Part shown: one piece after another, positions 47,399 to 48,416 of the stretch
How positions within the stretch are numbered: position 1 is the first letter of the stretch
Layout of the letters: every line of letters begins with the position of its first letter
Sequence record: PX104380.1
From: a phage
Reading direction: 5' to 3' (one strand)
Length of the DNA stretch: 64,000 bases
The notes under the pieces: model-generated
What the model was told of the DNA's origin: nothing
The model's database searches: none
What the model saw: only the letters and a program-made list of their open reading frames with translations
Position numbers and translations under genes: made by a program

Positions 47399-47474
47399 TG
47401 GTCGAGGCAGTAGGGATCGAACCTACGACCTAGGACTTAGAAGGTCCTTGCTCTTCCTTCTGAGCTATGCCCCG
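47399..47474 (-). tRNA. tRNA-Arg (anticodon UCU)
   Basis: 76 nt cloverleaf by hand folding; acceptor CGGGGCA/UGCCUCG, anticodon loop CUUCUAA, T-loop UUCGAUC, CCA encoded. Confidence 0.85.
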
Positions 47475-47478
47475 TAAT

Positions 47479-47554
47479 TGGGGTGACCGATGGGAGTCGA
47501 ACCCATGACTACGAGAATCACAATCTCGAGTTCTACCAACTGAACTACGGCCAC
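47479..47554 (-). tRNA. tRNA-His (anticodon GUG)
   Basis: 76 nt; anticodon stem CGAGA/UCUCG, loop UUGUGAU, discriminator C73, CCA encoded; no encoded G-1. Confidence 0.8.
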
Positions 47555-47668
47555 ATTAATACCTACTCCAACAATCAAGATGTCTTCACACGAAATTAAG
47601 AGAAGAGTGATCAGTTCAACCCCTATAATCGCGTCAAGTAGATATTAATGTGACAGTTGTCACAAATT

Positions 47669-47743
47669 TGGCGGACGTGATAGGATTCGAACCTATAACC
47701 AATCGCTTAACAGGCGATCGCTCTGCCATTGAGCTACACATCC
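47669..47743 (-). tRNA. tRNA-Asn (anticodon GUU)
   Basis: 75 nt; anticodon stem AUCGC/GCGAU, loop CUGUUAA, T-loop UUCGAAU, CCA encoded. Confidence 0.8.
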
Positions 47744-47747
47744 AAAT

Positions 47748-47834
47748 TGGTGGGGAGTGGTGGAGTCGAACCACCCGAGTCGCAATGACAATGAATTTAC
47801 AGTCCACACCGCTACCTCTACGGGATAACTCCCC
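47748..47834 (-). tRNA. tRNA-Tyr (anticodon GUA), class II
   Basis: 87 nt with long variable arm; anticodon loop CUGUAAA; acceptor GGGGAGU/ACUCCCC; CCA encoded. Confidence 0.75.
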
Positions 47835-47843
47835 AAATTAATT

Positions 47844-47918
47844 TGGTGGCCCTGGGTGGAATTGAACCACCATCTGGCGATTATGAGTCGCTTGCTTGAA
47901 CCTTCCAGCTACAGGGCC
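47844..47918 (-). tRNA. tRNA with CAU anticodon (Ile2 by position, or Met)
   Basis: 75 nt; anticodon loop CUCAUAA; acceptor GGCCCUG/CAGGGCC; CCA encoded. Confidence 0.75.
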
Positions 47919-47919
47919 T

Positions 47920-47995
47920 TGGTGCTGATTAACGGAATCGAACCGCCGACCTTCTCATTACAAGTGAGTTGCTCTACCTACTGAGCTAAATCAGC
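47920..47995 (-). tRNA. tRNA-Thr (anticodon UGU)
   Basis: 76 nt; anticodon loop CUUGUAA; T-loop UUCGAUU; CCA encoded. Confidence 0.8.
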
Positions 47996-48000
47996 AAAAC

Positions 48001-48090
48001 TGGCGGAGGTGATAGGATTCGAACCTATGAATCGCCGGAGCGACTGCCGGTTTTCAAGACCGGTGCATTCAACCACTCTGCCACACCTCC
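48001..48090 (-). tRNA. tRNA-Ser (anticodon UGA), class II
   Basis: 90 nt; anticodon stem CCGGU/ACCGG, loop CUUGAAA; long variable arm; CCA encoded. Confidence 0.8.
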
Positions 48091-48092
48091 AG

Positions 48093-48166
48093 TCTCCATA
48101 CAAGGATTTGAACCTTGGACCTCCTGATCCCAAATCAGGCGCTCTACCAAACTGAGCTACACGGAG
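48093..48166 (-). tRNA. tRNA-Pro (anticodon UGG)
   Basis: Anticodon stem CCUGA/UCAGG, loop UUUGGGA; C1-G72; 3' CCA not encoded. Confidence 0.8.
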
Positions 48167-48176
48167 TAAATTAAAT

Positions 48177-48250
48177 TGGAGCGGATAATGAGAATCGAAC
48201 TCACATCATCAGATTGGAAGTCTGAGGTAATACCATTATACGATATCCGC
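48177..48250 (-). tRNA. tRNA-Gly (anticodon UCC)
   Basis: 74 nt; anticodon stem UCAGA/UCUGA, loop CUUCCAA; CCA encoded. Confidence 0.8.
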
Positions 48251-48255
48251 AAATT

Positions 48256-48342
48256 TGGTGCGAGAAGTGGGACTCGAACCCACAAGGAAATCATTCCGCA
48301 GCATTTTAAGTGCTGTGCCTTTACCAATTTGACCATTCTCGC
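48256..48342 (-). tRNA. tRNA-Leu (anticodon UAA), class II
   Basis: 87 nt; anticodon stem CAGCA/UGCUG, loop CUUAAAA; long variable arm; CCA encoded. Confidence 0.8.
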
Positions 48343-48343
48343 G

Positions 48344-48416
48344 CTGGGAATAAAGGACTCGAACCTTTGCATCCTGGAATCAAAATCCAGTGCCTTACCA
48401 ACTTGGCTAATTCCCA
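48344..48416 (-). tRNA. tRNA-Gln (anticodon UUG)
   Basis: 73 nt; U1-A72; anticodon stem CUGGA/UCCAG, loop UUUUGAU; CCA not encoded; 1 nt from tRNA-Leu. Confidence 0.8.

Follow-up and report, generated by a model that had tools for sequence, protein, structure and literature searches.

The stretch of phage DNA described here (sequence record PX104380.1, 64,000 nucleotides, referred to below as the window) carries an array of tRNA genes at positions 47399–48416. ARAGORN placed exactly 11 tRNA genes in this interval, all of them on the minus strand, in agreement with the initial annotation of the sequence, which had proposed an eleven-tRNA array with these anticodons. In the direction of transcription the genes are those for Gln(UUG), Leu(UAA), Gly(UCC), Pro(UGG), Ser(UGA), Thr(UGU), CAU, Tyr(GUA), Asn(GUU), His(GUG) and Arg(UCU); the annotation had listed the correct set, in the order opposite to that of transcription. 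The window belongs to Tequatrovirus and is 99.1% identical to Shigella phage KRT47, whose record has the same 11 tRNAs annotated. The flanks of the array are as in T4, with trna.2–.4 and internal-protein genes on one side and rnaD-rnaC-e.8 on the other, and the array occupies the same genomic position as the T4 cluster and its T2L, RB1 and RB3 variants, sharing with them the Gln-Leu-Gly-Pro-Ser-Thr-CAU...Arg backbone and the rnaD and rnaC genes that come after it (PMC2330249). By position and shared backbone the locus is the T4-type tRNA operon of Tequatrovirus, and the array is an already known and common feature of the genus, annotated in hundreds of genomes.

The Rfam tRNA model matched 10 of the 11 genes at 59–74 bits (gathering score 29). 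The first gene of the array, tRNA-Gln(UUG), is located at 48343–48416 (67.4 bits) and is followed by tRNA-Leu(UAA) (48256–48342, 100% identical to that of T4), tRNA-Gly(UCC) (48177–48250), tRNA-Pro(UGG) (48092–48166), tRNA-Ser(UGA) (48001–48090) and tRNA-Thr(UGU) (47920–47995, with the anticodon stem ACUCA/UGAGA). These six tRNAs are 89–100% identical to their T4 counterparts, and the calls for Gly and Pro draw on this comparison as well as on the two programs. The next gene, with a CAU anticodon (47844–47918), had been annotated as either Ile2 or Met. It has C4-G69 and C5-G68 pairs and an anticodon stem-loop core, GCGACUCAUAAUCGC, identical to that of E. coli ileX and unlike that of metT; judged by these features it is of the Ile2 type, the first of the two options, and not metT-like, and it presumably carries the lysidine modification and reads AUA. 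For tRNA-Tyr(GUA) (47748–47834) the sole match in the Rfam scan, at 30.9 bits and within the same clan, fell below threshold. The gene is nevertheless 100% identical (87/87 nt) to the tRNA-Tyr of T6, which is seen on northern blots and is functional (PMC13096335). The tRNA-Asn(GUU) gene (47669–47743) is 100% identical to T2 tRNA-Asn, tRNA-His(GUG) is placed at 47479–47554, and tRNA-Arg(UCU) (47399–47474), a T2-type allele 63% identical to the T4 gene, closes the array.

Comparison with T4 and other Tequatrovirus arrays

T4 has only eight tRNAs (Gln, Leu, Gly, Pro, Ser, Thr, Ile and Arg) and lacks His, Asn and Tyr, a comparison that the initial annotation had right. Homology between the window and T4 ends inside the CAU tRNA, at ~47899, and picks up again at 47030. 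Between these two points the window completes the CAU tRNA with its 3' part and continues with Tyr and Asn, then, after a gap of 114 nt, with His, Arg and an open reading frame (ORF) of 116 amino acids (ORF116), whereas T4 holds another CAU allele, segB and another Arg allele; the CAU and Arg alleles of the two phages share ~63% identity. The CAU-Tyr-Asn-Arg-ORF116 block of the window is of the T2L type. With respect to T2, the window retains Thr, which T2 has lost, and adds tRNA-His together with a structured RNA just upstream of it (the pre-His RNA, described below); His goes unmentioned in the paper on the T4 and T2L clusters (PMC2330249).

The preferred 27-bp site of SegB lies inside the tRNA-Asn gene of T2L, and segB homing displaces ~1250 bp of T2L DNA, a stretch with two ORFs and the genes for tRNA-Met(CAU), Tyr, Asn and Arg (Brok-Volchanskaya et al. 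2008, PMC2330249). The tRNA-Asn gene of the window contains GGTTCGAATCC...GCCAA, the preferred SegB cleavage site. No segB-like ORF was found within the window array; a tblastn search of the window with T4 SegB returned two GIY-YIG seg-like homing-endonuclease homologues outside it, both on the minus strand (19740–19967 and 29783–30268, with 50% and 27% identity).

The sampled relatives, on which the picture of a mosaic array is based, differ in the tRNAs they carry and in the position of homing endonuclease genes (HEGs). The T6 array reads Gln Leu Gly Thr CAU Tyr / segB / Arg, that of T2 reads Gln Leu Gly Pro Ser / ORF / CAU Tyr Asn Arg / ORF116, that of RB68 reads Gln Leu Gly / HEG / Ser Thr CAU Tyr Asn Arg / ORF116, and that of SG1 reads Gln ... 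CAU / HEG / Arg / ORF116. All eleven tRNAs are present in 11B_SA_NWU, with an HEG between His and Arg, and in the window, without an HEG. None of T2, T4, T6 and RB68 has a tRNA-His. Endonuclease genes appear at four different inter-tRNA positions in the relatives, each accompanied by loss of neighbouring tRNAs, and several alleles occur among these phages for the CAU, Arg and Asn tRNAs.

In the phage collection the Gln-Leu-Gly core was present in 447 records at a coverage of at least 80%, the Tyr-Asn pair in ~396 of the ~450–520 Tequatrovirus records, and the pre-His RNA plus tRNA-His in ~195 records at an identity of at least 95% (~40% of records); a 1221-bp array query was covered to at least 80% in 238 records. 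Tyr plus Asn is therefore the majority state in Tequatrovirus, His is common, and T4 is a reduced outlier. T4 lacks Tyr, Asn and His because segB occupies their place: it lost the Tyr/Asn block through segB homing, and its eight-tRNA set is the reduced state. This reverses the polarity adopted in the initial annotation, where His, Asn and Tyr had been regarded as additions to a T4-like set. The stretch that begins within the CAU tRNA, with its 3' part, takes in Tyr, Asn, His and Arg and ends with ORF116 is the T2-type cassette, in whose place T4 and SG1 have a segB-type homing endonuclease gene.

The tRNA-Tyr gene is ~96% identical to tRNA genes of unrelated Vequintavirus (rV5-like) phages, and the Pro/Thr/CAU/Tyr stretch (47748–48166) is ~89% identical to Vequintavirus tRNA genes. 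The variable arm and T arm of the window tRNA-Tyr are also identical to those of T5 tRNA-Tyr over 30 nt, and these likenesses together suggest that tRNA genes move between phage families.

The pre-His RNA and the downstream genes

Three features of the locus had been overlooked in the initial annotation, namely the structured 114-nt gap, the CAU and Arg alleles that differ from those of T4, and the rnaD and rnaC homologues that follow the array. The gap between tRNA-Asn and tRNA-His (47555–47668) folds far better than shuffled sequence (z = -4.4). It comprises a short hairpin next to tRNA-Asn (47652–47668, UGUGAC-AACU-GUCACA, 6 bp) and the pre-His RNA (47555–47651), both on the minus strand. 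The 3' half of the hairpin (GUCACAU), which Karamvirus shares, could base-pair with the three nucleotides that open tRNA-His. The 3' 96–97 nt of the gap recur with tRNA-His as a conserved pair in Tequatro-, Karam-, Jiaoda-, Winkler-, Mosuguk- and Moonvirus. In the genera other than Tequatrovirus, the interval between tRNA-Gln and tRNA-His consists largely or wholly of the element, whose 3' end lies directly against tRNA-His in every case.

The pre-His RNA is built of a 14-bp terminal stem and a 3-bp hairpin with a 7-nt UCWUGAU loop, and its interior varies between genera. Covariation was tested on the terminal stem and the UCWUGAU hairpin with nine distinct sequences. In this alignment 99.3% of the cells were paired, compared with 36–51% when one strand was slid by 1–3 columns, five pairs had changed on both sides, and none of 500 shuffles reached the observed score. 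The pre-His RNA is, then, a conserved structured RNA with covariation support across six Tevenvirinae genera. Searched at a permissive threshold, Rfam had no match to the 114-nt gap. An exact 15-mer scan of IMG/VR for the core of the element returned 52 loci, 4 of which were real copies and the others chance matches. The gap was also considered as a degenerate tRNA, a 'tRNA-Gln' being annotated in some Klebsiella phage records, and this was rejected since the annotated Gln merely adjoins the element.

In T2 and RB68, Asn is followed directly by Arg with a 4-nt spacer, which indicates that the pre-His RNA and tRNA-His form one indel unit of ~194 bp. At its boundary with this RNA the tRNA-His of the window is unusual. 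It keeps C73 and has U at position -1 (47555), where E. coli hisR has G, and hence lacks the encoded G at -1 opposite C73 of the bacterial type. An encoded G at -1 of tRNA-His is near-universal. All 17 phage tRNA-His genes examined have U at this position, among them those of T5, a Mydovirus phage and mycobacteriophage Bxz1, and in the T5 record tRNA-His is annotated from the U at -1, a start that hints at the U being kept in the mature tRNA. G-1 is the major HisRS identity element (PMC4357726, PMC3064791).

The closest parallel in layout is RNA III of T5 (NC_005859), a 106-nt "stable RNA with unknown functions" that lies flush 5' of a tRNA-His with U at -1, like the window element, and has a 12-bp terminal stem when folded. 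Its interior architecture is unlike that of the T-even element. A covariance model of the pre-His RNA run against T5 and other loci found only T-even copies, and with filters off T5 RNA III reached 9.9 bits (E about 5). The similarity is not significant and homology is not claimed; the two elements resemble each other only in position and architecture. In a Mydovirus phage a structured spacer of 60 nt occupies the same place before tRNA-His, and the layout of a structured RNA flush upstream plus U at -1 recurs in T5 and a Vequintavirinae phage.

We tentatively propose, as one possibility that is itself doubtful, that the tRNA-His module is a distinct phage-specific unit consisting of a structured RNA, with a terminal stem that reaches to the last nucleotide ahead of the tRNA, and a U-1 tRNA-His. 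The pre-His RNA may set the RNase P site and so give the phage tRNA-His a non-G 5' end; alternatively, it may itself be a stable decoy or regulator. If the proposal is true, a host nuclease or HisRS could tell the phage tRNA-His from the host one by its non-G 5' end, and the presence of tRNA-His in a phage that uses less histidine than its host would be explained.

Downstream of tRNA-Arg, and on the same strand, ORF116 (phrog_3355) is located at 47030–47380. It lies beside the tRNA arrays of T2, RB68, SG1 and one Karamvirus phage and is absent from T4 and T6; a Jiaodavirus array has an adjoining 351-nt ORF that is likened to it by length alone. Pfam, a PDB sequence search, a search of 5.8 billion proteins and Foldseek against the PDB gave nothing informative for ORF116, whose AlphaFold model has a pLDDT of 68. 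Homologues of rnaD (species 2 stable RNA, 46916–47033) and rnaC (species 1 stable RNA, 46771–46909), also on the minus strand, are 98% and 99% identical to those of T4, respectively. Just 3' of rnaC, a consensus scan picked out a strong terminator-like hairpin of 10 bp with 7 G-C pairs and a U tail (46697–46720, minus strand), which is the probable end of the tRNA and stable-RNA transcription unit. The eleven tRNAs, the small structured RNA, the small ORF, rnaD and rnaC would probably be made as one transcript, from which, by inference from T4 biology, host RNase P and 3' processing enzymes would cut the mature tRNAs.

Codon supply, tRNA-cleaving defences and the origin of the array

The array is, in all probability, a complete and endonuclease-free Tequatrovirus tRNA operon, of which the T4 set is a reduced version, with what appear to be two compatible jobs: supplying tRNAs for the phage proteome and buffering against tRNA-cleaving defences. 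For the first job, codon usage in 81 ORFs of the window (17,734 codons; 34.7% GC) was compared with that in 40 E. coli ORFs (14,572 codons). The nine codons most enriched in the phage are AGA (7.0x), ATA (4.6x), TCA (3.5x), AAT (3.3x), GGA (3.0x), ACT (3.0x), ACA (3.0x), TAT (2.7x) and TTA (2.6x), and all nine are read by tRNAs of the array. The three most enriched amino acids, phage over host, are Lys (1.88x), Tyr (1.86x) and Asn (1.57x). Tyr and Asn fit codon compensation because both amino acids and their AAT and TAT codons are phage-enriched, and supply and demand account for them as well as for the eight T4 tRNAs. His does not fit, being the second most depleted amino acid (0.68x; CAT 1.14x, CAC 0.24x). 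The array tRNAs would thus serve the codons most over-represented in a 35% GC phage relative to E. coli, Tyr and Asn included, and the earlier suggestion that the three tRNAs may be there for rescue rather than for codon usage is not supported by the comparison, in which only His misfits.

Supply might even be the whole explanation, all eleven tRNAs matching the AT-rich phage proteome and any defence effects being incidental. The ranks of Tyr and Asn (second and third) and of AAT and TAT, among nine top codons that are all array-read, speak for it, but we regard this as improbable: a depleted His has a tRNA, Lys, the most enriched amino acid (AAA 2.0x), has none in the array, and the tRNA region is dispensable in T4 and T2L (PMC2330249). 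Incidental effects also sit badly with the observation that a tRNA-Tyr identical to that of the window counters Septu in T6, while T4, without it, cannot escape. The missing tRNA-Lys is the primary target of PrrC and PARIS.

Buffering by Tyr has published experiments behind it. The Septu Ec-B88 PtuAB nuclease cleaves tRNA-Tyr in the variable arm; overexpression or amplification of T6 tRNA-Tyr rescues T6, whereas deletion of the tRNA region heightens the sensitivity of T6. Septu restricts T4 strongly, with no escape, but T2 resists it (Chihara et al. 2026, PMC13096335). In T6, segB beside tRNA-Tyr drives tandem amplification, and since the window array has no segB this route would be unavailable in cis. 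PtuAB of retron-Eco7 cuts E. coli tRNA-Tyr at U47|C48 and spares the tRNA-Tyr of the T5-like phage SP15, and protection is abolished when the longer variable loop of the SP15 tRNA is replaced by that of the host (PMC12673091). When 245 coliphage tRNAs were screened as a library, the sole rescuer from PtuAB was tRNA-Tyr, that from AriB tRNA-Lys and that from P2-OLD tRNA-Thr(UGU) (PMC12445682). Buffering by Tyr is hence supported, having been demonstrated on the identical T6 molecule, extra copies of which outrun Septu PtuAB.

For Asn and Thr the argument comes from the nuclease sites. AriB of PARIS cleaves between positions 40 and 41, beside a UAAU motif, in Thr(UGU) and with lower efficiency in Asn(GUU), and His(GUG) and Pro(UGG) are minor products (PMC12409363); the determinant of P2-OLD is a paired CNG motif and its targets include Thr(UGU) and Asn(GUU) (PMC12445682); E. 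coli tRNA-Asn(GUU) is a secondary target of both nucleases (PMC12409363, PMC12445682). Several tRNAs of the window thus share their anticodon with a cleaved host tRNA, namely Tyr (Septu PtuAB, retron-Eco7) and Asn and Thr(UGU) (AriB, OLD). Phage and host sequences were compared at these sites for Tyr, Asn, His, Thr, Pro and Gly. In tRNA-Asn, positions 36–41 are UAAUCC in the host and UAAGCG in the window (T5 likewise has G39, where the host has U39), and the anticodon stem is AUCGC/GCGAU in place of the GCGGA/UCCGU of the host. In tRNA-Thr, the UAAUCA of the host becomes UAAUGA in both the window and T4, which places G40 instead of C40 at the AriB cut site. All six host tRNAs have the paired CNG motif; of the window tRNAs, Pro and Gly keep it, and Tyr, Asn, His and Thr have lost it. 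From these anticodon-stem changes, at the AriB 40|41 site and in the P2-OLD motif, buffering by Asn and Thr and their resistance to AriB and P2-OLD are predicted.

The T5 and SP15 rescue tRNAs, of which Tyr acts against retron-Eco7 and Lys, Thr and Asn against PARIS (PMC11555353, PMC12673091, PMC12409363), share with those of the window the variable and T arms of Tyr and the G39 of Asn. They differ in the remainder of their tRNA bodies and in including tRNA-Lys, the primary PARIS target. As a defence target His appears in the literature only as the minor AriB product and through acceptor-stem nicks by retron-Eco2; no evidence of a defence role for tRNA-His was found, and the target list of the Schlafen paper contains no Tyr, Asn or His. 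The idea of replacement tRNAs under attack, put forward in the initial annotation for all three, is already in print (van den Berg 2023; Azam 2024; Chihara 2026); it holds for Tyr (T6 against Septu, SP15 against retron-Eco7), is consistent with the changes in Asn at the AriB and OLD determinants, and finds no evidence for His. tRNA-His, accounted for by neither supply nor defence, travels with a conserved structured RNA as a separate unit of ~194 bp and has no encoded G-1.

Several points weigh against this account of the array. The record counts given above are approximate, the phage database being redundant. The His module may have been inserted in some lineages or deleted from others, and the counts in the promoter and terminator consensus scan were no higher than in shuffled sequence. 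T6 tRNA-Tyr is itself cut by Septu (PMC13096335), so that it protects by dose and not by resistance, and T5 tRNA-Asn was needed for PARIS rescue of one phage only, not of T4 or T7 (PMC12409363). The site comparison covers only six phage/host tRNA pairs, the stem differences at the nuclease sites may be incidental, since the phage tRNAs have diverged from those of the host overall, and the defence experiments come from T6, SP15 and others, none from this phage.

The tRNA content could instead reflect, for the most part, the traffic of homing endonucleases and recombination in a region that the phage can do without, with the His module as a hitch-hiker of little selective value. The endonuclease genes at four inter-tRNA positions, with the attendant tRNA losses, the multiple CAU, Arg and Asn alleles and the restriction of the His module to ~40% of records agree with this, as does the association of segB homologues with tRNA genes across phages (PMC13096335). 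We consider it unlikely, however, for Tyr plus Asn is kept in most of the genus, and the structures of tRNA-His and of the RNA upstream of it are kept by compensatory changes in at least six genera, which indicates purifying selection.

Least probable is that His, Asn and Tyr were gained together as GUN tRNAs of the queuosine family, as nuclease-resistant replacements against colicin E5-type attack. The tRNAs that T4 lacks are indeed 3/4 of that family (a post hoc coincidence with a chance of 4/220 = 1.8% for 12 uncovered amino acids), Jiaodavirus arrays have all four (Tyr, Asn, Asp, His), and colicin E5 has been raised for coliphage tRNAs, within the published idea of phage tRNAs under attack (van den Berg 2023, PMC10264068). 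In each of the six window tRNAs compared, however, the anticodon loop of 7 nt is that of the host (CUGUAAA for Tyr, CUGUUAA for Asn and UUGUGAU for His, the same as in E. coli), which argues against escape at the loop as this idea requires, and the three tRNAs do not travel together, T6 having Tyr only, T2 and RB68 Tyr plus Asn, and His belonging to a separate module. Colicin E5 is a bacteriocin and is not known as a phage defence. The anti-phage nucleases known to act on these tRNAs cleave the variable arm or the anticodon stem, PtuAB cutting the former, AriB acting at 40|41 and OLD depending on its CNG motif, and not at Q34, and this thread of the initial annotation is not supported.

The array in itself changes nothing: a description of the Tyr/Asn block, from T2L, dates from 2008, and an identical tRNA-Tyr was shown to act against a defence system in 2026. 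Only the tRNA-His module, with the structured RNA upstream, and the U at -1 look under-described, and no discussion of them was found in the literature; paper searches on T5 RNA III, on T-even Tyr, Asn and His tRNAs and on phage tRNA-His lacking G-1 returned nothing relevant. What the analysis provides is a corrected polarity, in which T4 is the depleted outlier because of segB, and evidence that Tyr and Asn are compatible with supply and with defence alike. It also yields predictions at the level of single bases, according to which the phage tRNA-Asn and tRNA-Thr should resist PARIS AriB and P2-OLD.

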